Assembly (NCBI GenBank): GCA_963702845.1
Contig: OY969763.1
Location: forward strand, 5,312,001-5,376,000
Reading direction: 5' to 3'
Origin: an uncultured Verrucomicrobiae bacterium
GTDB lineage: Bacteria > Verrucomicrobiota > Verrucomicrobiia > Limisphaerales > Palsa-1400
Length of the DNA: 64,000 nt
The notes beneath the pieces are model-generated. The model saw only the letters and a list, made by a program, of their open reading frames with translations, did no database searches and was not told the origin of the DNA. A program made the position numbers and the translations under genes. Of this stretch, positions 1 through 13,107 are shown one piece after another (position 1 is the stretch's first letter; each line of letters begins with the position of its first letter).

Positions 1-3000
1 CCGATGAGCAAGGCATTTTGGCGTTCGGATTGCAGGGCTTCGCGGCTGGCATCAACCACATCGAGGTAATTGACAATGCCGGAGCGGTAACGTTCAGTTG
101 CCAGTTCAACGGCGCGATTGGCGTTTTTGACCGCGCGTTCCTGGGCTTCCGATTGCTGGGCTAAAAAGTGAAGGCCACTCAAGCTGTTCTCCACATCGCC
201 GAACGCAACGAGGATGCGTTGGCGGTAGTTAGCGATCGCTTCCTGATAAACAGCTTTCGAACGTTGCAAGTTCGCGCGATTGCGGCCACCGGCAAAAATC
301 GGCAGCGAAATGCTCGGACCGATCGACCACGTGTGGCTGTCCCAATTGAACAGCGTATTGATATCGCCGCTGAGAAAACCACCGGAGGAGGTCAGCGTGA
401 TGACAGGAAAAAATGCAGCTTTCGCAACGCCGATGCGAGCATTGGCGGAAGCGAGAGCGCGTTCGGCTTCGGAAACGTCGGGACGACGTTCCAAAAGTTC
501 TCCTGGCAACCCGGCGGGAATCGTGGGCGGAATCGGATGCCATTTGGGATCATTCAACGTCGCGATTTTGAAATTGGACGGATTCGAACCGCTCAAAATC
601 GCGATCGCATTCTCCAGTTCCGCGCGACGTTTCGCGATCGCTGCGTAGTCAGCTTCAGTGGTTGCCAACTCAGTCTCTGCACGCGAGACGTCGAGTTCAT
701 TGCCGATGCCGCCTTCAAAACGGCTCCGCACGAGTCGCACCTGCTCTTTACGCAAATCGACGGTGCCGCCAACGGTCGCCATCTCCGCATCGAGCGCGCG
801 CAGCGTGAAATAATTTTCCGCTACGTCGGATTCGAGCGTGAGCATCACGTTGTAATAGTTCGCGAGCGCAGATTGCGCATCCGCGCGTGAGCTTTCAAAG
901 CCACGGCGGACGCGTCCCCACAAATCGATTTCGTAACTCAGGTCGAGCGGCGTACTGAACGTATTTGCAGTGATCGCGCCAAAGCTTGGGTCTGCGTTGG
1001 GCGAATAACGTTGGCGGTTCCAACTGGGGTCCAGTGATAACGTCGGCATCAAATCGCCGCGAGCCACACGCGCGGTCGCGCGGGACTGGTCAACACGAGA
1101 CACAGCTGCACGCAGTTGTTGGTTCGCGCCGAGCGCTTTCGATTCGAGTTCGTTCAGCTTCGTATCGCCGAACACTTCCCACCAGTTACCTTTCGGCACC
1201 GTGTCGAGCGGTTGGCCTTGTTTCCAGGAACCAAGTTCTTCTGCTTTATAAGCCTGCGGCGCGGGTGTAGCCGGTTTTTTGTAATCAGGACCGACTTTGA
1301 ACCAGCCCGCGTGGGCTGACGAACTGGAGAGCATCAACGCGATGATCGCGATACCTGTCGCCGCAGCCGCGCCACCGAGAATCGGTTTGTGCGCAGGTTT
1401 GTGCGACCAGCCGAGCTTCATCAACACGACATAAAACACCGGCGTTAGGAACAGGCCGAACAACGTCACGCCAATCATTCCTGAGAATACGGCGACGCCC
1501 ATGGCCTGGCGCATTTCAGCACCGGCTCCGCGCGCGACGACGAGCGGGAATACACCCGCGATAAACGCAATGGACGTCATCAAGATCGGGCGCAAACGCA
1601 AACGGCACGCTTCGATGGCCGCATCAAATGGCGTCATGCCGTGGTCTTGTTTTTGTTTCGCAAATTCGACGATCAAAATCGCGTTCTTACACGCTAGTCC
1701 GACGAGCACGATCAAACCGATCTGCGTGAAAATGTTGTTATCACTGCCTTTGAGCCACACGCCCGCAATCGCGAACAGCAAGCACATCGGCACTATCAGG
1801 ATGATCGCGAGCGGAAGTCGCAAGCTTTCGAACTGCGCCGCGAGCACGAGGAACACCAGCAGGAGACAAAGCGGATATATATAGATCGCCGTGTTGCCCG
1901 CGAGGATTCGTTGATAGGTCAAATCCGTCCATTCGTATTGCAGCCCTTTCGGCAATTTGTCGTCCATGATTTTGCTCATGATCGCTTCGGCCTGTCCGGA
2001 ACTGTAACCGGGCGCGGGTCCGCCGTTCAGTTCGGCTGCGGGATAGCCGTTGTAACGCGTGGCCCGATCAGGACCGTGCGTTTCGTTCACGCGCACGAGC
2101 GTCCCCAACGGAACCATCTGGCCTTTTTCATTGCGGGTTTTCAGGCGCGTGATTGCTTCGGGATGTTCGCGATATTGTGAGTCCGCTTGCGCAATCACTT
2201 GATAGGTGCGGCCGAAACGATTGAAGTCATTCACGTAGAGCGATCCCAAATAGATCTGCATCGTGTCGAAAATATTCTGCAGCGGCACGCCTTGTTGTTT
2301 CGCTTTCACGCGGTCCACATCCGCATCGAGCTGCGGAACGTTGACGGTGTAAGTCGAGAACGTTCCGGCAAGTCCAGGCGTCTGATAACTTTGCCCAACG
2401 ATTTGTTGGATTGTTCCAAACAGCGCGTCGCTCCCGAGATCTGCGCGGTCTTCAATGAACAATTTAAATCCACCAATCGCGCCAATGCCCATGACAGGCG
2501 GCGGCATGACGGAGAGCACGAACGCTTCCTGGATGCTGCTGAATTTTTGGTTGAGCGCGGCCGAGATCGCCGGGCCGCTCAAGTTTTCCGTTGTTCGGTC
2601 ATCAAACGGTTTCAAACAGAAGAATACGATGCCCGCATTCGGAGCGACGCTGAATCCGCTGATGCTCAAGCCAGGGAAAGCAACGGCGCTTTCCACGCCG
2701 GGCGTTTGCAGACCAAGATCTGACATGCGACGAATGACGGCTTCAGTGCGATCCAGCGATGAACCGTCAGGCAATTGCGCGAACGCGACGAGGTATTGCT
2801 TGTCCTGTGTTGGCACAAAACCGGTCGGAACTTTGTTGAAGCTCCAGCCAGTGAGCACAACGAGCCCCGCGTAAACGACGAGCGCGATAGCACTTTTGCG
2901 GAGGACACTGCCCACGCCGGCAGAATATTTATCGCCAGCCCATGCAAACACTTTGTTGAACGGGCGGAAGAACCAACCAAGCACGCGGTCCATGACGCGA

Positions 3001-4529
3001 CCAAACCAATCTTTCGGTGCGTTGTGGTCCTTAAGCAACACTGCGCACAACGCCGGCGAAAGCGTCAGCGAATTGAAAGCGGAAATGACTGTCGAAATCG
3101 CGATCGTGATTGCGAACTGCTTATAGAATTGGCCGGTTAAACCGTTGATGAACGCCGTCGGCACGAATACCGCGCACAAAACCAGCGCCGTCGCGATAAT
3201 TGGATTCGTTACTTCGCTCATCGCGCGTTTAGCTGCATCAGTGGGCGACAACCCAAGCGCGATATTGCGCTCCACGTTTTCGACGACAACGATGGCGTCA
3301 TCGACGACAATACCAATCGCCAACACCAATCCGAACAACGTCAGGTTGTTGATCGAGAAACCAAGCCCGAGCATCACGGCGAACGTTCCAACCAGTGACA
3401 CCGGCACAGCAGCAAGCGGAATGAGCGACGCGCGCCACGTCTGCAAAAAGAGAATCACGACTAGAACAACCAGCAGCGTCGCCTCGAGCAATGTGTGGAC
3501 GACGGCCTCGATTGAGTGCCGCACGAATACAGTCGGGTCGTAAACGACGGCGTAGTCGATGCCATCAGGAAAGCCCTTCTTCAACTCGTCCATTTTCGTG
3601 CGGACATCTTCCGAGAGCTGAAGCGCGTTGGCGCCCGGCGTTTGGAAAATGGGCAACGCTACGGCGGACTTGTTGTTCAACAACGACCGCAATGCGTAAC
3701 TGCCCGCGCTCATCTCGACACGCGCCACATCCTTGAGCACCGTCTTCTCGCCGTTCGGACCGGTCTTGACGATGATTTGTCCAAATTCCTCAGGCGTAAT
3801 CAAACGGCCTTTGGTGTTGATCTGATATTCGAAATTCACCGGATTGCCGACCGGCTGTTGGCCGATCGCACCAGCGGCGACTTGCACGTTCTGCTCGCGA
3901 ATCGCGTTCACCACGTCGCTCGCCGTCAAATTGCGCGACGCGACTTTGTCCGGATTGAGCCACACGCGCATGGCGTAGTCACCAGACCCGAACACTTCCA
4001 CGTCACCCGCGCCAGGAATACGCGCAAGCGAGTCTTTCACCTGCAACGTCGCATAATTGCGCAGGTAAACTTCGTCGTAGCGTCCATTCGGCGAGAACAA
4101 ATGCACAACCATTGTCAGGTCGGGCGATTGTTTGAGCGTGGTCACACCAAGCCGGCGAACTTCTTCCGGCAACTTAGGCAACGATTGCGAGACGCGGTTC
4201 TGCACCTGCACCTGCGCTTTGTCGATGTCGGTGCCGAGTTTGAACGTGATGGTCAACGTCATCACGCCATCGCCCGTCGCCTGCGAATACATATAGAGCG
4301 AGTCCTCAACGCCGTTGATTTCCTGCTCCAATGGTGAGGCGACTGTTTCCGAAATTGTTTTCGGATTTGCGCCCGGATACATCGCGCGCACGACAATCGT
4401 CGGCGGCACAATTTCGGGATATTCACTGATCGGCAATCGCTTCACCGCGATCAAGCCGACCACGAAAATTAAAATCGACAACACACCGGCAAAGATCGGT
4501 CGTCGAATAAAGAAATGAGAAAAATTCAT
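1..4529 (-). CDS. HAE1-family RND efflux permease (MexF/OqxB-like) fused in frame to a NodT/OprM-type outer membrane factor; partial, runs off the left edge
   Basis: Hand translation from ATG 4529: MNFSHFFIRRPIFAGVLS..., VVDDAIVVVENVER, ACKNAILIVEFA, GLFLTPVFYVV. It then continues in the same frame to GWFKVGPDYKKP...NWWEVFGD...SYEIDLWGRVRR...RYRSGIVNYLDVVDA. Its absence from the ORF track fits the lack of an in-frame stop before position 1. Confidence 0.9.
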   Translation of the reverse strand, partial: MNFSHFFIRRPIFAGVLSILIFVVGLIAVKRLPISEYPEIVPPTIVVRAMYPGANPKTISETVASPLEQEINGVEDSLYMYSQATGDGVMTLTITFKLGTDIDKAQVQVQNRVSQSLPKLPEEVRRLGVTTLKQSPDLTMVVHLFSPNGRYDEVYLRNYATLQVKDSLARIPGAGDVEVFGSGDYAMRVWLNPDKVASRNLTASDVVNAIREQNVQVAAGAIGQQPVGNPVNFEYQINTKGRLITPEEFGQIIVKTGPNGEKTVLKDVARVEMSAGSYALRSLLNNKSAVALPIFQTPGANALQLSEDVRTKMDELKKGFPDGIDYAVVYDPTVFVRHSIEAVVHTLLEATLLVVLVVILFLQTWRASLIPLAAVPVSLVGTFAVMLGLGFSINNLTLFGLVLAIGIVVDDAIVVVENVERNIALGLSPTDAAKRAMSEVTNPIIATALVLCAVFVPTAFINGLTGQFYKQFAITIAISTVISAFNSLTLSPALCAVLLKDHNAPKDWFGRVMDRVLGWFFRPFNKVFAWAGDKYSAGVGSVLRKSAIALVVYAGLVVLTGWSFNKVPTGFVPTQDKQYLVAFAQLPDGSSLDRTEAVIRRMSDLGLQTPGVESAVAFPGLSISGFSVAPNAGIVFFCLKPFDDRTTENLSGPAISAALNQKFSSIQEAFVLSVMPPPVMGIGAIGGFKLFIEDRADLGSDALFGTIQQIVGQSYQTPGLAGTFSTYTVNVPQLDADVDRVKAKQQGVPLQNIFDTMQIYLGSLYVNDFNRFGRTYQVIAQADSQYREHPEAITRLKTRNEKGQMVPLGTLVRVNETHGPDRATRYNGYPAAELNGGPAPGYSSGQAEAIMSKIMDDKLPKGLQYEWTDLTYQRILAGNTAIYIYPLCLLLVFLVLAAQFESLRLPLAIILIVPMCLLFAIAGVWLKGSDNNIFTQIGLIVLVGLACKNAILIVEFAKQKQDHGMTPFDAAIEACRLRLRPILMTSIAFIAGVFPLVVARGAGAEMRQAMGVAVFSGMIGVTLFGLFLTPVFYVVLMKLGWSHKPAHKPILGGAAAATGIAIIALMLSSSSAHAGWFKVGPDYKKPATPAPQAYKAEELGSWKQGQPLDTVPKGNWWEVFGDTKLNELESKALGANQQLRAAVSRVDQSRATARVARGDLMPTLSLDPSWNRQRYSPNADPSFGAITANTFSTPLDLSYEIDLWGRVRRGFESSRADAQSALANYYNVMLTLESDVAENYFTLRALDAEMATVGGTVDLRKEQVRLVRSRFEGGIGNELDVSRAETELATTEADYAAIAKRRAELENAIAILSGSNPSNFKIATLNDPKWHPIPPTIPAGLPGELLERRPDVSEAERALASANARIGVAKAAFFPVITLTSSGGFLSGDINTLFNWDSHTWSIGPSISLPIFAGGRNRANLQRSKAVYQEAIANYRQRILVAFGDVENSLSGLHFLAQQSEAQERAVKNANRAVELATERYRSGIVNYLDVVDASREALQSERQNALLI

Positions 4530-4566
4530 GGGGTATTCAAAATCGAAGCCGAAGCTTCGGTCGTCG

Positions 4567-5745
4567 TTAGTTTCGTTTCGCGACTTTGGTTGCGTCGGTG
4601 GATTCCGCGACCTGTTCCTGCGGCGACACCGGCATGCCGGGACGCACACGTTGCAGGCCGTTTACGACGATCTTTTCGCCCGGCTGCAAACCGGCGCGAA
4701 TAACGCGCATGCCGTTGATGACTGGACCAAGCTTCACCGCGCTATAAGCAACAGTGTTCGATGGCGTCAGTGTCAGCACGTATTTCTGCGCCTGATCGGT
4801 GCCGATCGCCCGTTCGCTCACGAGCACCGCTGGATGTTTTTCGCTCAACGGCACACGAATGCGCGCAAACAATCCGGGCACAATCCGACCGTCCGCATTA
4901 TCAAACACCGCGCGCAGCAAAATGCTTCCGGTATTCGGATCGAGTTTGTTATCGAATGATTCGATATGGCCGCGATGCGCGAAACCGTCCTCGTCGCCTA
5001 ATTGCAGTTCGACCGGCACTTTGCCGTCGGCATCTAAATCGAGTTTTTTGGTCACCGCGAGGGTGTTGTATTTGAGCAATGTAGCTTCATCGACGTCCAC
5101 GTAGACGTAAACCGGGCTGACCGACACAATGGTGGTGAGCATGGTCGATGCGCCCGCGATGCCGCTGACGTAATTACCTTCCGTCAACAACGCGCGGCTG
5201 ACACGGCCATCGATCGGCGCACGAACCTGCGTGTAATCAAGGTCGAGTTTCGCGAAATCACGCGACGCTTCGGCCGAAAGCAACGCCGCTTTGGCCCCAT
5301 TGAAGCGAGCAATCCGAGCATCGGATTCTTCGGTTGAAATCGCCTTATTCTCGAGCAGTTGCGCACTGCGATCGGCTTCGCGTTTCGAATTTTCAAACTG
5401 CACTTTGGCGCGTTCGGCGTCGGCGGCGAGTTTGTCAAATTCGGCCTGGTGCCAACGCGGATCGATCACGAACAACGCGTCGCCTTTTTTAACCAACTGC
5501 CCGGACTGAAAACGGACTTCCTGGATATAGCCGGAAACGCGCGGCCGCACTTCAACGGAGCTCACCGGCTCAGTGCGTCCGGTGAATTCGTCCCATTCGA
5601 CGACTTCCTGTTGTTGAACTGGCGCGATCGTGACCGCTGGGGCCGGCATTTGTTGTTGTTGCGGCGCATGCTGGTTGCAACCTGTGACAACCGCGGCGAG
5701 TCCGCCGATGGCAATAGCTGTAGCGAGTATGAACTTTTGTTTCAT
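4567..5745 (-). CDS. RND efflux periplasmic adaptor (membrane fusion protein, MexE-like), lipoprotein
   Basis: Lipobox VVTGC; motifs VEVRPRVSGYI, VRAPIDGRVS, DPNTGSILLRA; lies directly upstream of the RND permease. Confidence 0.95.
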   Translation of the reverse strand: MKQKFILATAIAIGGLAAVVTGCNQHAPQQQQMPAPAVTIAPVQQQEVVEWDEFTGRTEPVSSVEVRPRVSGYIQEVRFQSGQLVKKGDALFVIDPRWHQAEFDKLAADAERAKVQFENSKREADRSAQLLENKAISTEESDARIARFNGAKAALLSAEASRDFAKLDLDYTQVRAPIDGRVSRALLTEGNYVSGIAGASTMLTTIVSVSPVYVYVDVDEATLLKYNTLAVTKKLDLDADGKVPVELQLGDEDGFAHRGHIESFDNKLDPNTGSILLRAVFDNADGRIVPGLFARIRVPLSEKHPAVLVSERAIGTDQAQKYVLTLTPSNTVAYSAVKLGPVINGMRVIRAGLQPGEKIVVNGLQRVRPGMPVSPQEQVAESTDATKVAKRN

Positions 5746-5763: not shown

Positions 5764-6090
5764 TTAGTCGCGCGCAAAAACGTTGCGGCGTGCGTTGTTA
5801 CGGACCTGCCGCTGGTGGGCCGCCCAATTCGCGACCGAGGTCGCTTTCTCTTGTGCGAGCGTGGGGAATACGAGATATGGAAATTCCGTATCCCATGCGA
5901 TTGCTTCGGCTTCATTGACGGCCAATTGCAGCATGTGTTCGCGTCCTTTCAAGGCAGCGCTGAACTCCGCGATGACGTTGGCCTTGGCCTGTTCGATGCG
6001 GCCTAACAGTTTCTTGCACGCCGCAATGCAAATTTTGGTGAACCCACCTGTTTTCGAGGTTGTAGTTCTCGTCTGATATGTCGTTTTCAT
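5764..6090 (-). CDS. Small hypothetical protein inside the efflux operon
   Basis: 108-aa ORF filling the gap between the TetR and MFP genes on the same strand; helical, LQLAVNEAEAIAW...FPYLVFP. Confidence 0.7.
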   Translation of the reverse strand: MKTTYQTRTTTSKTGGFTKICIAACKKLLGRIEQAKANVIAEFSAALKGREHMLQLAVNEAEAIAWDTEFPYLVFPTLAQEKATSVANWAAHQRQVRNNARRNVFARD

Positions 6091-6145
6091 GAGATTTCTT
6101 TCTTCTAGTAGTCGCCTGTTTAGTCAACTAAGTCGTCAAAATTTT

Positions 6146-6760
6146 TTAAGCCGCCGCCATCGTCGCGCTCTTTACGCCGAGCAACGCCGAAATCCCGCTA
6201 AACCCGTCGCGCAGAACCTCCACCGTGTTCTGAATCCGTGCCTGGGTCATTAAGCCGTGCAGATATATCTGCAACATCCGTGCTTTCGCGTCCGCATCGG
6301 GCGCATCAATCAATCCTTCCGCATGCGCGTCGCGGATTGCTGACTCCAAATACTTCCGCTGTTGATCAAAAATCTGTTCAATCCGCTCGCGCAGTTTCTG
6401 CTCCTGCGTGCTGACTTCCGAACCCAACGTGCAGAGCGGACACCCTAGCACGGACCCGTATTTCGCCTGCATTTCAATCTGCTTTTGGTAACCGAACTCG
6501 CAATACTTGCGGATTCGGTCCAGAGGCGGGACGGTAGCTGAAAAGATTTTGTCCATCTCCACCTGTTTTTTTCCACAGCCTACATCGAGAGCGGCGACGG
6601 CCAGATCAGCCTTTGATTCGAAAAAATAATAGAAGCTGCCCTTCTTCACCTCGGCTTTATCACAAATCTGATCGATCGTGGTGCTGCCGTAGGATCCGGT
6701 CCAGATCAGTTCTAAAACCGCATCCATCAACTTCTCTTTAGCATCGCTAACTCGGCCCAT
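6146..6760 (-). CDS. TetR/AcrR family transcriptional regulator (NemR-like)
   Basis: N-terminal HTH TTIDQICDKAEVKKGSFYYFFESK; C-terminal GCPLCTLGSE. Confidence 0.95.
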   Translation of the reverse strand: MGRVSDAKEKLMDAVLELIWTGSYGSTTIDQICDKAEVKKGSFYYFFESKADLAVAALDVGCGKKQVEMDKIFSATVPPLDRIRKYCEFGYQKQIEMQAKYGSVLGCPLCTLGSEVSTQEQKLRERIEQIFDQQRKYLESAIRDAHAEGLIDAPDADAKARMLQIYLHGLMTQARIQNTVEVLRDGFSGISALLGVKSATMAAA

Positions 6761-6778: not shown

Positions 6779-6794
6779 TTGACTAAAAGGTCAA
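6779..6794. promoter_or_regulatory. Putative TetR operator palindrome TTGACT-AAAA-GGTCAA
   Basis: Inverted repeat about 20 bp upstream of the TetR start, similar to NemR-type TAGACC-N4-GGTCTA operators. A related TTGACTAAA half-site is on the minus strand at 6119-6127. Confidence 0.55.
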
Positions 6795-6876
6795 CAATAA
6801 TTGTGTAAAAGAGGGCAGCTTTGCTGATCAGCAGACGGAACATGCGAGAAACGAACTGTTTACAACTCGAAAAATT

Positions 6877-8070
6877 TTATAATTCTTTCGAGAAAACCAT
6901 CGTAACGCCGTTGCGCGGCATTAACAGTTGGTCGTCGCCTTTGATGACCACTTCGGCGTTGTCGGGCTGATTCCCTGGTAGATTGATTGTGTAACCGTCG
7001 CCTTCTTTCTTCCATGTGCCGGTGCCGATCGCTTGCAAACCGTTCCCGGTATCTTTTTTGATGATGAAGTTATGGTCGGTGGTCACAGTGATATTCAGGC
7101 CGGCCATCATTGGCATGAGGCTGTTGCGGAGTTTGTTGATGTTCAGCGGTGTCGGGTTCTGTAATTTTCTTTTTTCCTGCGCGAACGTGGCGTCGCGGTC
7201 AATTTTCCAAAGGCCAAGAATGGACTGCGGATCGTATTTAGCCGAGTGGCCAGTCTTTAAATATTCGCTCAAGTCGTCGAGATCGCTGCTGACGAGTTGG
7301 GTGATTTCCTGCGTAATGGCCGTATTCGTAACGAGCGCCTGCACTTTCGCGTTCTTCAGGATATCACCAATGCTGGCCTGTGATTGTATCATCTGTTGAA
7401 GCTGAACGTCGTTCCCCAGCTCTTTGAATTCCGCTCGCTCGCCTAGAGTGAGAAAGGGCGGATAGTGCGCAAGACGGCTTTCGAGAAGCGGATTGTGTAT
7501 GACGAGCCCAACGATGTCGGCGGCCTGATAGGTTTGTTTCGGAGTCGGATCATAACCCGCGAGCACATGATCAAGTTTCATGCTGTGCATTTCCTCGCGC
7601 AGCTTGGTGATGTTTTGCACCGAACTTGGGTCCTGTGCGCCTTGCGCGACTTCGGTCGTGAAATAGCCCGCAATATAAACAGGTAACATCAACAGCAGGA
7701 AATAGACAGCGCCGTTCAAGAGGCCGAGGCACAAACCGACGCGCGAATACATCCGGCTCCAACGATAGTAAGCTTTGTCGTCCTTTTTGTATTTGTAGAA
7801 GATGCTCATTTTGCGGTGCAGAACATGGCCGAGGACTTTGAAGGCAAGCAGGATGATGAGGAACGCGATCAATGCCGGGACGAAAAGCTCCCATCCCGGA
7901 TGTTGAAGACCGAGGACAGGCAGGAGTTTTTTCGTGAGCGGCGACAGTGGCACAGCGAGGAGTGATCCGAAAACCAATCCGAGCAGCGAAGCGGCTACGC
8001 GAATCGGTCCCTGATAATATCCAATGGCGCCAACAATGCCCAGGCACAGCAATGCGATTATCCAAAGCAT
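6877..8070 (-). CDS. CvpA-family membrane protein with a large C-terminal soluble domain
   Basis: N-terminal hydrophobic helices with GYYQGPIR and SRVGLCLGLLNG (CvpA-like), followed by about 250 aa of hydrophilic sequence. Confidence 0.6.
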   Translation of the reverse strand: MLWIIALLCLGIVGAIGYYQGPIRVAASLLGLVFGSLLAVPLSPLTKKLLPVLGLQHPGWELFVPALIAFLIILLAFKVLGHVLHRKMSIFYKYKKDDKAYYRWSRMYSRVGLCLGLLNGAVYFLLLMLPVYIAGYFTTEVAQGAQDPSSVQNITKLREEMHSMKLDHVLAGYDPTPKQTYQAADIVGLVIHNPLLESRLAHYPPFLTLGERAEFKELGNDVQLQQMIQSQASIGDILKNAKVQALVTNTAITQEITQLVSSDLDDLSEYLKTGHSAKYDPQSILGLWKIDRDATFAQEKRKLQNPTPLNINKLRNSLMPMMAGLNITVTTDHNFIIKKDTGNGLQAIGTGTWKKEGDGYTINLPGNQPDNAEVVIKGDDQLLMPRNGVTMVFSKEL

Positions 8071-8119: not shown

Positions 8120-9775
8120 CTAAATGGGTTCCTCAGGGTTTTCCGCTATTTCCCCAACGGCAGGTTCGTCGGGCGATGTCGGCCTGCTGACCGATCGCGC
8201 CTGCAAGAACGTTTTCAACTCGGCCGCCGCTTTTCCGCCGAACCCGGGGACTTCCGCAATTTGCTCAACGGTGGCCAAGCGCAGGCGCTGCACCGACCCG
8301 AACTTTTTCAACAAGCGCGCTTTGCGTTGTTCGCCGATGCCGGGGAATTCGTCGAGGATGCTTTCGGAAATTTTCTTCAACCGCAGTTGCGCGTTGTAAG
8401 TGTTGGCGAAACGATGCGATTCATCGCGCACACGCTGCAAGAGTTTCAACGCGCCACAATCGTGGCTCAGCCGCAACGGCTCGCTTTGACCGGGCTGATA
8501 AATCTCCTCGAACTCCTTCGCCAAGCCAATGATCGGAATGTTTTGCAAACCGAGTTTCGCCAGTTCGGCGCAGGCCGCATTCAATTGCCCCTTGCCACCA
8601 TCAATGACAATCAGATCCGGAAATATTTTGCGAAGAGGCGCAGGCGCGGAGGCAATTGTCTTCTCCCTCTCCTCCTCGGGAGGAGGGGGCTGGGGAGAGG
8701 AGGCCTCGGCAGTGGAGACTTCACCCGGCTGTTGTTCGGTCGATTCCTTCAACAACCGCGAATACCGCCGGTGCACTGTCTCCGCCATGCACGCGAAGTC
8801 ATCCTGTCCAACCACTGTCTTCATCCGAAACCGCCGATAGTTCGACCGATCCGGTTTACCATCCCAAAAGCTAACCATCGACGCCACCGCAAACGTCCCA
8901 CTGATGTTCGAAATATCGAACCCTTCGATCCGCTCTGGATTCGCAGGCAGGTTCAACACTTTGGCGAGTTCAGCTACGTCACGATGCGGTTCGATTGCGA
9001 CTGGCAGCGTATAGGGCTGACGTTTGAAAGTGCGAATGCGCCCGGTCGTCTTTCGCAAGTCATTCAACGCATCCCGGTAATCGGCTGCTTTTTCGAAATC
9101 TTGAGCGCCAGCCGCCTTGCGCATCTGCGCCTCCAATTCCTGTTCCATTTCTTCGGTTTGGCCGGCGAGAAATTCACAGGCGGCCAGAACCTGTTGTTTG
9201 TAGGCTTCGAGTGGCACGTTGCCGATGCAGGGCGCAGTGCAATACTTGAGGTGACCGTAGAGACAATGTTTGTAGTCGTCCTCACCCGGCGTGAGCGGGC
9301 GACAGCCGCGCAAATTAAATTTGCGCCGTGCCAGCGTGAGCGTGTGGCGCGCGGCGGCTGAATGTGCGAACGGTCCAAAATATCGCGCCCCATCTTCCTG
9401 ACGCAAACGGGTCATCGTAAAGCGCGGAATCGGATCATTGAGATTCACCTTCAACAACAGGAATCGTTTATCGTCGCGAAAACTAATGTTATAGCGCGGC
9501 TGATATTCCTTAATCAGTTTGCCTTCGAGCAAAATGGCCTCGGGTTCGTTGCGGACGACGTGGACGTCGAAATCGTAAATCGAATCAACGAGCGCATTGA
9601 ACTTCAAGTCCCAACCCATACGCCGCGACGGCTGGAAATAGGTGCTGACACGCTTGCGCAAGTCGCGAGCTTTCCCGACGTAAATCACCGTCCCAAACCG
9701 ATCCTTCATCAGATAGATGCCCGGCTTGTGCGGCAGTTCACTGACTTTTTTGCGAATTAGGTCGGTCGCTGGCAC
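8120..9775 (-). CDS. uvrC: Excinuclease ABC subunit C
   Basis: GIY-YIG (PGIYLMKD...YVGKARDL), RIEGFDISN, IDGGKGQL, LQRVRDESHRFA, C-terminal HhH. GTG at 9775 is the likely start. Confidence 0.96.
   Translation of the reverse strand: MPATDLIRKKVSELPHKPGIYLMKDRFGTVIYVGKARDLRKRVSTYFQPSRRMGWDLKFNALVDSIYDFDVHVVRNEPEAILLEGKLIKEYQPRYNISFRDDKRFLLLKVNLNDPIPRFTMTRLRQEDGARYFGPFAHSAAARHTLTLARRKFNLRGCRPLTPGEDDYKHCLYGHLKYCTAPCIGNVPLEAYKQQVLAACEFLAGQTEEMEQELEAQMRKAAGAQDFEKAADYRDALNDLRKTTGRIRTFKRQPYTLPVAIEPHRDVAELAKVLNLPANPERIEGFDISNISGTFAVASMVSFWDGKPDRSNYRRFRMKTVVGQDDFACMAETVHRRYSRLLKESTEQQPGEVSTAEASSPQPPPPEEEREKTIASAPAPLRKIFPDLIVIDGGKGQLNAACAELAKLGLQNIPIIGLAKEFEEIYQPGQSEPLRLSHDCGALKLLQRVRDESHRFANTYNAQLRLKKISESILDEFPGIGEQRKARLLKKFGSVQRLRLATVEQIAEVPGFGGKAAAELKTFLQARSVSRPTSPDEPAVGEIAENPEEPI
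8663..8703. repeat. Purine/pyrimidine palindromic element embedded in uvrC
   Basis: CCCTCTCCTCC-TCG-GGAGGAGGGGG forms an 11-bp stem (one G-T pair), followed by GGGGAGAGG; it encodes SPQPPPPEEERE in a non-conserved loop. Confidence 0.55.
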
Positions 9776-9848
9776 GTTAAAATTTTCGCGCAAAGAAGGC
9801 GCGAGTTCAAACTTTCAACCACATTGGTCTTATGTGCAATCTTCGGTA

Positions 9849-12800
9849 ATGAGTCTAGCGCGAACATTCATTTTGCGCAGCCTGCGTTTTCACGCGCGCA
9901 GCCACGCCGGCACGATGCTCGGCGTCGCGGTGGCTACGGCGGTGCTCGTCGGCGCGCTCGCGGTGGGCGACTCGATGCGGGAAAGCTTGCGTGAGCTGAA
10001 TCTGCAACGCATCGGCCAAACGGATTTCGCTCTGCCCGGCAAAGACCGGCTGTTTCGCGCAGAGTTGGCGCGCGACTTTTCAGACGCTCAAATTTCAGCG
10101 GCTCCAGTTTTGTTTCTTCCGGGCACGGCGAGTAATCCAGACGCCTCCGCCCGTGCCAATCATGTCCAAATCCTCGGTGTCGACGAACAGTTTTGGTCGA
10201 TGGCTCCGTCCCCGTCGAATTTGAAACTCGACGGCGTGATGTTGAATGCCGCGCTCGCCGAGCAATTGCGCATCAAAGCTGGCGATTCGATCGTCCTGCG
10301 CATTCACAAACCGTCACTGGTTTCCGGCGAGGCTCCTGTTTCGCCGCGCGAACAGACATCTGTTTCGTTGCGCGTCCCGGTTGCAGGGATCGTTCGTGGA
10401 GATCGTTTCGGCGCATTCGGTTTGCAGGCGAGTCAAACCACCCCACTGAACGTCTACTGTACCGCTCGCCACCTTGCAGGCGGCCATCGAGCAACCGGGC
10501 AAAGCGAACTTGCTGCTGGTCCATGCGCCATCGGCAACTGTTCCTGAACTAACATCCCGGTTGCAAAAAACCTGGCGGCTCGCCGACGCGGAGGTGTCCA
10601 CACGCGAAGTTCCGGGCGGTGCGGAATTGCGGACCGATCGCGTCTTCATTGATCCGCCGGTGGTTCAAACGGTTTTGAAAACCGTCACAAACGCACAACT
10701 CGTCTCGACATATTTCGTCAACGAGTTACGCGCAGGCACGAACAGCACGCCCTATTCGATGGTCGCTGGAATTGGTGAGCCGATCGTCCAGCGCGATACG
10801 GCGGGTGACGAAATAATCATCAATCAATGGCTCGCCGATGATTTACACGTGAAGGCGGGCGATGAGTTGCAACTGACTTACCTCGTCCTCGCGGATTCTC
10901 AACGACTCGAAGAAAAACATAATCGATTCAAGATCCGCCAAATTGTGCCGTTGGAAGGCGCTGCCGCAGACAAAACGTTAATGCCCGACTTCCCCGGAAT
11001 CGCCAAGGCGGAGAAGACCGAAAATTGGGACGCTGGTTTCGCCATCGACATGAAGAAGATTCGTCCGAAAGACGAAGTGTATTGGAAACAGTTTCGCGGC
11101 ACACCGAAGGCATTCGTTACGTTGAAAACTGCGCAGAACATGTGGGGCAATCGATTCGGCGATTTTACGGCCATCCGGTTTCCGACGAACGACGTGGCGG
11201 CTGTCTCGGCGGCGGTGACAAAAAACCTCCAACCGTCAGCGTTCGGGTTCGCTTTCGAACCGATCAGACAACGCGCTCTCAACGCCGCGTCGCAATCCGA
11301 AGATTTCGGACAACTGTTTCTCGCGTTTAGTTTTTTTCTGATTGTTGCCGCGCTTATTTTGATGGCGTTGTTGTTCCAATTCGGCTTGGAACAACGCGCC
11401 ACTGAAACAGGAACGCTGCTGGCGATTGGATGGCGTGCGCCACAGGTGCGGCGCTTTGTTTTGATTGAAGGCGTCTTCGTCGCAGTCATCGGTGCGATCC
11501 TTGGCGTCATCGGCGGTTTGGTTTATGCCAACGCAATTTTATACGGACTGAAAACAATCTGGCGCGGCGCAGTTGGAACGTCTGCGCTCCAATTTCATGT
11601 TTCGATTTTGACGATTGTCATCGGATTGTTCGCATCCGCCCTACTTGCGCTGCTAGTGATCTGGTTTGTGCTCAAACGACAATCGAAACGACCTGCGCGT
11701 GAACTCCTGGAGAGAGGTTCGGAAAACGAACTCGTGGTTGTCGAACAGAAGCGCGCTTGGTCGAAATGGATCGCGATCGGCTCGCTGGTCGCAGCTATTG
11801 CACTGATTGGAACGGCGCTGGCGCAAAAACAATCGTCGTCGGCCGAAACATTTTTTGGCAGCGGTGCGCTACTCTTGATCGCTGGGCTTGCGGCGGTCAT
11901 GGTTTGGCTGCGAAAGCTCGGGGCCGTGGCACATACCACAGCACTCGATGTGCGTTCATTGGCGGTCCGAAGTTGCGCGCGCCGACGAAAGCGCAGTCTG
12001 GCCACTATCACCCTGCTCGCTTGCGGCACGTTTTTGATTGTGGCAGTTGAGGCGAATAAGTTGAGCGCCAATTCCGAAACTGGACGATCTTCGGGCGTCG
12101 GCGGCTTTTTGCTCATCGGCGAATCGTCACTGCCAATCGTCCAGGATCTGAACACCAAAGCCGGACGCGAATTTTTCGGATTGGATGAAGCACCGATGCG
12201 CGACACTTCCGTCGTGCAACTGCGCGTGCGTGATGGTGACGACGCGAGCTGCCTCAATCTCAATCATCCGCAATCGCCGCGCATCCTCGGCGTGAATTCC
12301 AAGACCTTGGAACAATTGCACGCATTCACGTTCAGCAAGGCGCTGAAAGGTGTTCAGCCATCATGGGCTTTATTGCGCGGTCAGGACTACGCCGTCCCTG
12401 CTATCGCGGATGAGAATTCTCTCGAGTGGTCGCTGCACAAAAGCGTCGGCGACGTTTTGGATTACACGGACCAACGCGGGCGCCCGTTCAAAATCCGCAT
12501 CGTCGGCTCTATCGCCAATTCCATCCTCCAAGGCAATCTCATCATCGACGAATCAGAGTTCATCAAACATTTCCCGGACGAGAGCGGTTATCGAATGATC
12601 CTTATCGACACACCGTCGAATAATGCAGCAGCCGTTGCCACCGCCTTGTCCCGTGGACTCGAAGATCGCGGTCTCGAAGTCACCAGCACCACGCAACGGC
12701 TCGACGCCTATAACGCCGTGCAGAATACATATCTAAACACGTTTCAGATTTTGGGCGGGCTCGGCCTTTTGCTCGGAACCGCAGGGCTTGGGGTTGTTGT

Positions 12801-13107
12801 TTTGAGGAATGTTTTGGAACGCCGGGCTGAACTCGCGCTGTTTACAGCCGTCGGCCTGCGCAGGCGGGTCCTCCGCAAACTAATCATCATGGAACACGGC
12901 GCACTTTTGTTGGTTGGTCTCTTGATTGGCATAGCGGCCGCACTTGTCGCAATCGTGCCGGTATTGCGCGGACCGATGCAGCAGGTAAATTATCGTGGGC
13001 TGTCAATCACGCTCGCAGTCGTCTGCGTCAGCGGATTGATTTGGACGTGGGTCGCGGCGCGCATTGCGTTGCGAGGTGAATTGTTAAAGGCGTTGAGAAA
13101 CGAATGA
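9849..13107 (+). CDS. FtsX/MacB-type ABC transporter permease (duplicated domains); apparent +1 frameshift near 10458
   Basis: ORF 9717-10547 gives the N-terminus (GVAVATAVLVGALAVGDS) and ORF 10474-13107 the rest (EQRATETGTLLAIGW, ERRAELALFTAVG). Removing one T at about 10458 gives the continuous NVYVPLATLQAA. Confidence 0.85.

Follow-up and report, generated by a model that had tools for sequence, protein, structure and literature searches.

How can a permease of the inner membrane and a channel of the outer membrane be made from one chain? The question is raised by a reading frame at the left edge of the window, the 64,000-nucleotide stretch of DNA from an uncultured Verrucomicrobiae bacterium that was analyzed as a whole, in which an RND permease continues into an outer-membrane factor (OMF). 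The C-termini of RND permeases are cytoplasmic, and the usual HAE1-type chain ends with a short cytoplasmic tail after TM12; here the frame runs 506 residues further. The comparisons considered below suggest that permease and channel are joined via the channel's own export signal and that the one chain is therefore most likely cut into two proteins. Coordinates of the features are given in Table 1.

Table 1. Features of the fused locus and its neighbors (nucleotide positions in the window)
Feature	Position	Strand	Basis or remark
Fused RND-OMF reading frame	1..4529	-	Codons 1-1509 of 1545; genome G000:C1:5311892-5316529
HAE1-type RND permease, residues 1-1039	1413..4529	-	Profile matches; nearest to OqxB/MexF-like models, at scores under the cut-offs of these
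Last permease helix	1413..1520	-	Predicted helix 1004-1039, holds TM12
Basic loop, residues 1038-1051	1377..1418	-	Permease cytoplasmic tail; putative n-region
Uncharged hydrophobic stretch, residues 1052-1067	1329..1376	-	Predicted h-region
c-region, residues 1068-1074, ending A-H-A	1308..1328	-	Predicted signal peptidase I cut Ala1074/Gly1075
Predicted mature NodT/OprN-like OMF, residues 1075-1545 (471 aa)	1..1307, continues past window	-	Profiles, model, fold search
Periplasmic adaptor, 392 aa	4567..5745	-	TIGR01730; best named model MexE, below cut-off
108-aa protein	5764..6090	-	Conserved upstream of adaptor in related loci
Operator-like 16-mer between tetR and 108-aa gene	6124..6139	-	Sequence pattern
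TetR-family regulator, 204 aa	6146..6760	-	Profile matches
Operator-like palindrome upstream of tetR	6779..6794	-	Sequence pattern

An Open Junction

Translation of the minus strand from 4529 to 1 gives 1509 codons and zero stops, as the preliminary description had claimed in reporting an uninterrupted frame of at least 1509 codons. In the genome the full frame has 1545 codons; the final 36 codons and the stop lie outside the left edge of the window, with the stop 108 bases past that edge. The codon for Ala1074 ends at nt 1308 and that for Gly1075 begins at nt 1307, in agreement with the first reading of the junction, which had placed residue 1074 at nt 1308.

Other RND genes of the same assembly look frameshifted, so a test for an artefact was worthwhile; their presence is the point in favor of regarding the open junction as an assembly or sequencing error in the source genome. 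Against an error, 119 of the best 120 long relatives (849-2704 aa) are likewise fused and contain both ACR_tran and OEP, so that the search for homologues of roughly 1500 aa, proposed at the outset, finds them mostly fused and not always split. The junction is also bridged gap-free by contigs of two sequencing runs: one of run X1, which may be the source sample, covers 1198-1422 without a difference, and a run X2 contig spans 1278-1462 with 1 difference. Across 1250-1450, where mapping had been called for, these sequences, which are contigs at a depth of about 2 and not raw reads, have no stop or indel between the domains. The fused relatives and gap-free contigs together rule out an assembly artefact, and an error has next to no probability.

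The Permease and Channel Parts

The permease part matches NF000282 over residues 4-1037 (1455 bits; cut-off 1250), TIGR00915 (1168 bits; cut-off 940), and Pfam ACR_tran. The score with the OqxB model is 1458 against a cut-off of 2200, and that of the adjacent adaptor with the MexE model is 406 against 714; because these scores fall under the cut-offs of the named models, the pump is not an OqxB/MexE orthologue. Residues 1-1040 are confidently modeled as 12 helices with two periplasmic domains. D410, D411, K948, R978, and T985 are invariant in 75 aligned rows and stand where the proton-relay residues of AcrB lie.

The channel part contains two OEP stretches and matches the NodT profile TIGR01845 over residues 1079-1526 with 422 bits (cut-off 210), against only 119 bits for TIGR01844. 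Its AlphaFold2 model has the OprN/OprM fold, and Foldseek finds OprN and OprM as the closest structures (E 1.7e-29, TM-score 0.87 on the target). OprM's cysteine at the N-terminus is anchored in the outer membrane (PMC4790312). Phe1077 aligns with the first residue of mature OprM, leaving two residues between Ala1074 and that register, and the channel's predicted mature start has no cysteine. The three separate NodT genes of the genome do have an N-terminal lipobox cysteine.

The Linker as a Probable Internal Signal

The preliminary description had proposed a polyprotein with an internal signal of n-region, h-region, and A-x-A, cut after residue 1074 to release a non-lipidated channel; this putative processing fits all of the comparative tests. 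The principal comparison covers 113 unique linkers of close relatives, which as kin are not independent, and in which linker length and sequence drift (spacer length 51-64): identity falls from 92% for the last permease helices to 33% for the loop and 40% across the hydrophobic stretch, and is 74% at the start of the channel. Within this drift the pattern whose conservation was in question persists. The loop has a net charge of +2 to +6 and positions -18 to -4 are uncharged in 113/113 linkers; position -1 is alanine in 112/113 and glycine in 1/113, and position -3 is small in 111 (alanine in 100), while position -2 is free (K36 Q33 H14 N14 R13 T3). By sequence the linkers thus look like signal peptidase I substrates, with an n-region that is basic, an h-region free of charge, and small -3 and -1 residues; the motif classes used for the linkers are permissive. 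Among 100 full-length proteins, residues 1072-1074 form the sole triplet of conserved alanine, variable residue, and conserved alanine in 1545 columns, by criteria that were chosen after the pattern had been seen.

A signal matrix was built from positions -15 to -1 of 33 hand-picked, separate, Met-initiated channel proteins. It places site 1074 at the top of the whole protein with 14.7 bits, against 8.4 for the best site outside the linker, and ranks the junction site first in 81/100 relatives, with a better site elsewhere in 19/100; because its training proteins were homologous channels aligned on that very motif, the matrix is not independent support. AlphaFold2 gives no confident placement of the linker beside the permease (pLDDT <50 for residues 1041-1088), which is weak evidence because unfused sequences make up about half of the rows in the alignment and the modeled chain ended at residue 1100.

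Separate channel genes of the same clade have Met-initiated signal peptides that end at the same register, A-x-A|G-x-x-x-VGP. Because separate genes bear the same site on ordinary signal peptides, the linker is, by sequence comparison, made up of the pump's tail and the signal that belongs to the channel. Counting against the polyprotein, one relative, P0273 (480 aa, same 90% cluster), is called as a separate protein with a start within the hydrophobic stretch, as judged from its protein record. Signal peptidases I and II and BamA are all encoded in the genome. Taken with the linker pattern, signal peptidase I very probably cuts after Ala1074, freeing the channel.

The proposed route would begin with co-translational insertion of the permease by SecYEG, its tail remaining cytoplasmic. 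The hydrophobic stretch would then enter as a thirteenth, N-in/C-out signal, driving the 471-residue channel into the periplasm, where LepB would cleave at A-x-A. The unlipidated channel would reach the outer membrane with the help of chaperones in the periplasm and of BAM, trimerize, and meet the permease trimer via the adaptor encoded upstream; the spent signal may stay on the permease or be trimmed.

Fused and Separate Relatives

The 80 related loci have 82 channel records, of which 39 are fused and 27 separate, and 5 of the 39 fused records have a lipobox; fused relatives with a lipobox include L053, L050, L033, L039, and L040. The 182 unique in-frame junctions of the lineage comprise 171 with a long signal peptidase I site, 8 with a lipobox (4 called by script and 4 by eye), 1 with a short signal peptidase I site, and 2 less typical. 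One channel family therefore displays four states, fused or separate with A-x-A or lipobox. The preliminary description had the lipobox cysteine as lost: it is absent here, but its absence is no mark of fusion. Because separate relatives are also cysteine-free and some fused ones keep the lipobox, as read by eye from their N-termini, cysteine loss is not tied to fusion, and the common separate cysteine-free channels rule out that fusion brings it about.

In P0094/P0274 this channel with its signal follows an MFS transporter in one fused chain, and unrelated permeases are joined via a lipobox in P0144, P0169 (an Acidobacteriota-labelled cluster), P0228, L141, L142, L150, and L155. It is likely that, as a matter of routine, bacteria produce outer-membrane channels at the C-terminal end of polytopic transporters of the inner membrane, with an internal signal after 12 helices that is processed by signal peptidase I or by Lgt and signal peptidase II, and that a single family moves freely from one peptidase to the other and from fused to split genes and back.

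Among close relatives fused and separate forms coexist, and relatives manage without the join. JGI automatic names give both domains for many relatives; NCBI names give one of the two. In the plasmid collection no fusion occurs among the matches listed (the best 10, all two-piece; 1987 records lie beyond them).

Alternative Readings of the Join

The linker might instead be a permanent thirteenth transmembrane helix that tethers the channel to the pump, with the N-terminal arm stretched across the periplasm. Residues 1054-1073 are helical in one model (pLDDT ~65) and hydrophobic enough to span the membrane, the first helix of the channel comes in that model after about 40 non-helical residues, and OprM C18G/F/W mutants are functional, yet improperly targeted to the outer membrane (PMC4486845). 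A tether has no need, however, for small residues at -1 and -3 around a free -2, nor for the swapping of A-x-A and lipobox; linker conservation is 0.57 against 0.80-1.00 for the 12 permease helices, and the channel arm retains the motif that in OprM comes after the outer-membrane anchor. The assembled MexAB-OprM pump is ~320 Å long, with OprM making no contact to MexB (PMC6447562). A tethered channel is accordingly very unlikely. Translation restarting at Met1037, near the end of the last permease helix, would give a normal channel precursor and leave the full-length chain a by-product: this methionine is present in 113/113 linkers, and from it the sequence resembles an ordinary 38-residue signal peptide. 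The same methionine is, however, found in unfused permeases of the subfamily whose channels have a start of their own downstream (L054, L057, L064, L066, L074, and others), 11/22 Met-majority columns are invariant anyway, and methionine is missing at this place from the lipobox fusions L039, L040, and L050. No purine-rich site precedes Met1037, which is a weak point because the genome shows little Shine-Dalgarno signal (on a rough start set), and in the absence of a stop each permease chain would still bear a channel. The internal start, weakened by the unfused permeases and Met-less lipobox fusions, has a slim probability of being the explanation.

Cleavage at the internal signal is compatible with a further reading, namely that the join is a tolerated and reversible accident, not selected for 1:1 output, and retained since a signal peptide remains functional when the helices before it are even in number; we give this an even chance. 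The mixture of fused and separate channel records speaks for it, as do split loci, in which the permease ends with a stop and the channel after it starts independently, and G039, where the junction has apparently been entered by a small pair of genes and the channel once more has a separate start. Grouping of the fused permeases in a single clade is rejected (AU p 1e-39, 9 fused vs. 12 unfused rows), and with it, on this quick tree of 21 hand-picked rows, a single origin of the fusions. On the other side, a fused state of close type is kept across many genera (an in-frame junction in 11/24 same-family genomes and in the window's own), and repeated origin may equally reflect benefit. The ratio OprM:MexA:MexB in the solved pump is 1:2:1 (PMC6447562), and a polyprotein would supply two of these three parts. 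A fusion may have arisen by loss of the permease stop and channel start, joining the permease tail to the h- and c-regions of the channel signal, and such joins may have been made or undone several times.

Neighboring Genes

The adaptor upstream of the fused frame has an ordinary N-terminal lipobox (Cys23). The 108-aa protein has zero Pfam or NCBIfam matches. The TetR-family regulator is probably a local repressor; the operator-like pattern was derived from the same two sites listed in Table 1. A scan for promoters and terminators gave no signal above shuffles. Among the sequencing runs listed for this DNA none is of RNA; runs with a small share were set aside. The pump's substrate is probably ordinary.

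Implications

If the cleavage is true, bacterial polyprotein processing by signal peptidase extends to products in different membranes. The family provides a natural test of whether LepB (or Lgt/LspA in lipobox relatives) acts on signals deep within a polytopic protein, and its four natural states are ready-made controls, also for the need for an OprM-type lipid anchor. Signal predictors that consider only the N-terminus and annotation by a single name miss such channels, so efflux inventories undercount them. If the general reading is true, inner-to-outer-membrane polyproteins would represent an overlooked but general pathway in envelope biogenesis.

Comparison with Known Systems

In the openly accessible literature searched, which included passages of PMC10434189, PMC8277102, PMC4790312, PMC4486845, PMC4827864, PMC6281302, PMC5837995, and PMC6447562, neither a fusion of RND permease and OMF nor the processing of one is described. 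In the same sources no paper was found behind the earlier remark on RND-TolC fusions in heavy-metal pumps, and the search returned no experimental study of the other RND-OMF fusions in databases. The gene order of regulator, adaptor, permease, and channel is that of HAE1 pumps of the MexEF-OprN/OqxAB type (also MexAB-OprM and AcrAB-TolC). The best named models here are MexE, OqxA, and OqxB, and the charged membrane residues are retained; in contrast to these pumps, permease and channel share one frame and the channel has no lipidated cysteine.

TolC is exported via a signal peptidase I signal and has no lipid anchor. The channel described here is likewise predicted to be non-lipidated with a signal peptidase I signal, but is NodT/OprN-like by sequence and fold, and its signal is internal. 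In the polyproteins of Flaviviridae, host signal peptidase is said to cut at internal signals between membrane proteins, although in the eukaryotic ER membrane and a viral context. Closest to the mechanism proposed here is FbcH of Bradyrhizobium japonicum, a cytochrome b-c1 precursor reportedly split at an internal signal sequence: after a polytopic inner-membrane protein come a cleavable signal within the chain and then another protein. Both products of FbcH reportedly stay in the inner membrane, whereas the second product here must reach the outer membrane and, unlike in FbcH, the internal site of some relatives calls for lipidation and signal peptidase II.

The fused gene and its operon

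Read on the minus strand, the fused frame is free of stops from window position 4529 to the window edge and, followed into the genome, comprises 1545 codons and ends 108 bases past that edge. Residues 1-1039 match HAE1-type RND permeases and residues 1079-1526 match NodT-type outer-membrane factors, both above curated cut-offs, which bears out the preliminary description of a single stop-free ORF joining an RND pump to its channel. The nearest relatives are labelled Limisphaerales and Pedosphaera, which suggests Verrucomicrobiota. In locus L001, a gene resembling a sigma-70-family sigma factor by eye (6850-7866) lies on the same strand and starts 25 bases past the stop of the fused gene.

Features of the window around the fused gene
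Feature	Window position	Context
RND permease-channel fusion	4529-1 (minus strand)	
Adaptor lipoprotein	4567-5745	upstream of fused gene
108-aa protein, no Pfam/NCBIfam match	5764-6090	between tetR and adaptor gene
16-mer, likely TetR operator	6124-6139	before 108-aa gene
TetR regulator	6146-6760	upstream of fused gene
16-mer, likely TetR operator	6779-6794	before tetR
ABC-permease-like gene, apparently frameshift-split	9762-13107	

The 108-aa protein recurs in 20 other fetched loci of the same operon (tblastn; 39-58% identity over 36-73 aa) and has one weak paralogue in its own genome (tblastn). The two similar 16-mers are the only matches to their pattern in the window, against a chance mean of 0.07 for a pattern derived from these same two sites.

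Several RND genes of the assembly appear frameshift-split (contig C1 of the window's own genome, near 3.04, 3.13, 5.23, 5.38, and 5.89 Mb), as does the ABC-permease-like gene; these are probably assembly errors, and for this reason the fusion was itself tested as an artefact. The C-terminal part of the fused protein was compared with 8000 candidate proteins of 849-2704 aa and matched 577; both domains are present in 119 of the best 120 of these matches, the remaining one being an MFS-channel fusion. Contigs from two sequencing runs span the junction gap-free, and no stop or indel separates the domains. Together the two-domain relatives and the contigs rule out an assembly artefact; the RND-channel fusion is real.

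The linker as a probable internal signal

Linkers were delimited in the window protein and its best 120 matches by two anchors, the TM12 end and the VGP motif. Of these 121 proteins, 119 could be parsed (two lacked the TM12 motif), which gave 113 unique linkers of 51-64 residues. Identity is 92% across the final permease helices, drops to 33% in the loop, stands at 40% over the hydrophobic stretch, and recovers to 74% in the channel. Numbered back from the predicted cut between Ala1074 and Gly1075, positions -18 to -4 are uncharged and position -1 is Ala or Gly in all 113, the loop is net positive in all 113, position -3 is a small residue in 111, and position -2 takes six different polar residues. 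Small residues at -3 and -1 are the rule for signal peptidase I (SPase I, LepB), and this is the pattern seen in the linkers; the n-, h-, and A-x-A regions first described in the window protein are thus kept across its homologues. Among 100 full-length proteins, the A-x-A at the junction is the sole triplet of conserved Ala, variable residue, and conserved Ala (by criteria set post hoc). The permease model adds weak evidence: there, residues 1041-1088 score pLDDT <50 versus 80-95 for the permease itself. In the model with the channel, the hydrophobic stretch forms a helix (pLDDT ~65) followed by the OprN/OprM fold. Palindromic, REP-like short repeats are found in frame within the n-region of a fused gene (locus L189), and also in the n-region, here a long one, of an unfused channel gene (L220): insertions are tolerated in this region.

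Separate channels as natural controls

A channel-alone search among proteins of 259-825 aa returned fusion fragments and many Met-initiated proteins at ~70% identity. The latter have ordinary signal peptides that terminate in the same A-x-A|G-x-x-x-VGP register; others carry a lipobox (the signal peptidase II site with Cys). One near-identical channel, P0273, is annotated as a 480-aa protein of its own whose start lies within the hydrophobic stretch; it may be a fragment, the product of a frameshift, or a true split. A matrix of the 15 residues before the site, built from 33 hand-picked Met-initiated proteins (a homologous training set known as proteins only), ranks Ala1074 first within the fused protein; among 100 relatives, the junction site comes out on top in 81.

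For DNA context, 80 metagenome loci, some near-duplicates, were fetched using one separate channel. Their 82 channel records comprise 39 fused (32 of A-x-A type, five lipobox, two with a small-residue site of another kind), 27 separate (13 with cysteine, 11 of A-x-A type, three other), seven cut at the contig start, and nine without an N-terminus. In split loci a stop closes the permease after a short tail that is basic, rich in Pro and Ala, and begins like the n-region of fused genes, while the channel starts independently; the linker is therefore the permease tail combined with the h/c portion of the channel signal. Records from other Verrucomicrobiota likewise show, by eye, cysteine-free channels standing separately behind related permeases. 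Separate NodT-type channels of other Verrucomicrobiota with plain signal peptides and no lipobox Cys occur in loci L060, L063, L064, L066, L073, L074, L100, L129-L131, L135, L138, and L152, and make up a natural set of OprN-like channels that are unlipidated.

Spread and origin

A survey of 40 relatives showed in-frame junctions within the same genus, within the family, and within the order. A junction profile at E 1e-40 matched 32 of 401 genomes in a phylum-wide sample, most via the permease half only; 110 loci held 10 fused frames (one the window's own), four being lipobox fusions with a different permease type. Searching 1.84 billion representatives with a profile yielded five more full-length fusions; their permeases are unrelated, and each has a lipobox. 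Fused permeases require at least five changes of state in a 30-row tree, grouping nine of them together is rejected (AU test, p 1e-39, 21 hand-picked rows), and fused and separate channels interleave in a FastTree tree.

P0094 and P0274, which come from different sources and share a cluster, carry the same channel (71% identity) and A-x-A internal signal behind an MFS transporter (913-915 aa). In locus L041 (G039:C232), a small antisense gene pair resembling a PIN-domain toxin and antitoxin by eye occupies the junction (3900-4560); part of the hydrophobic stretch survives at the permease, and the channel gene brings a start and a lipobox of its own. This may be a split that arose secondarily.

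Proposed processing

The 12 permease helices would be inserted by SecYEG and the basic tail kept in the cytoplasm; the hydrophobic stretch would then act as internal signal, threading the channel into the periplasm, and LepB would cut after Ala1074. The window's own genome encodes LepB, LspA, and BamA. Across 182 unique in-frame junctions of the lineage from all sources, 171 are of the long SPase I type, eight lipobox, one a short site, and two atypical; because the junction swaps one peptidase motif for the other and is hardly seen without either, selection for cleavage is most simply suggested.

Alternatively, translation could restart at Met1037, which is invariant; however, the same Met is common to unfused permeases and invariance is seen in half of the Met columns, which weakens this explanation. 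A permanent tether would leave the channel attached to the permease. Release is favoured because the OprM first residue, with which Phe1077 is in register, is anchored in the outer membrane (PMC4790312), and assembled MexAB-OprM, ~320 A long, is described without OprM-MexB contact (PMC6447562). Speculatively, the hydrophobic residues at +2/+3 of the linker alignment might stand in for the lipid. Caution on mechanism comes from cysteine mutants, which are reported (PMC4486845) as functional though mislocalised for OprM and misfolded for CusC. Cleavage of an internal signal after residue 1074, as first suggested, is the best-supported reading, given the -3/-1 residues of the 113 linkers and the matrix rank of Ala1074; the conserved fusion is very probably a signal-peptidase-processed polyprotein.

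Comparison with known systems

Taken singly, the components are well known, and both domains are already named by automatic annotation. No study of an RND-channel fusion was found in the searched literature, which includes few subscription journals. The additions here are a four-state comparison in one family, a weakened restart explanation, a fusion of the channel to an MFS transporter, and a split locus carrying an inserted gene pair; the mechanistic precedent is FbcH of Bradyrhizobium.
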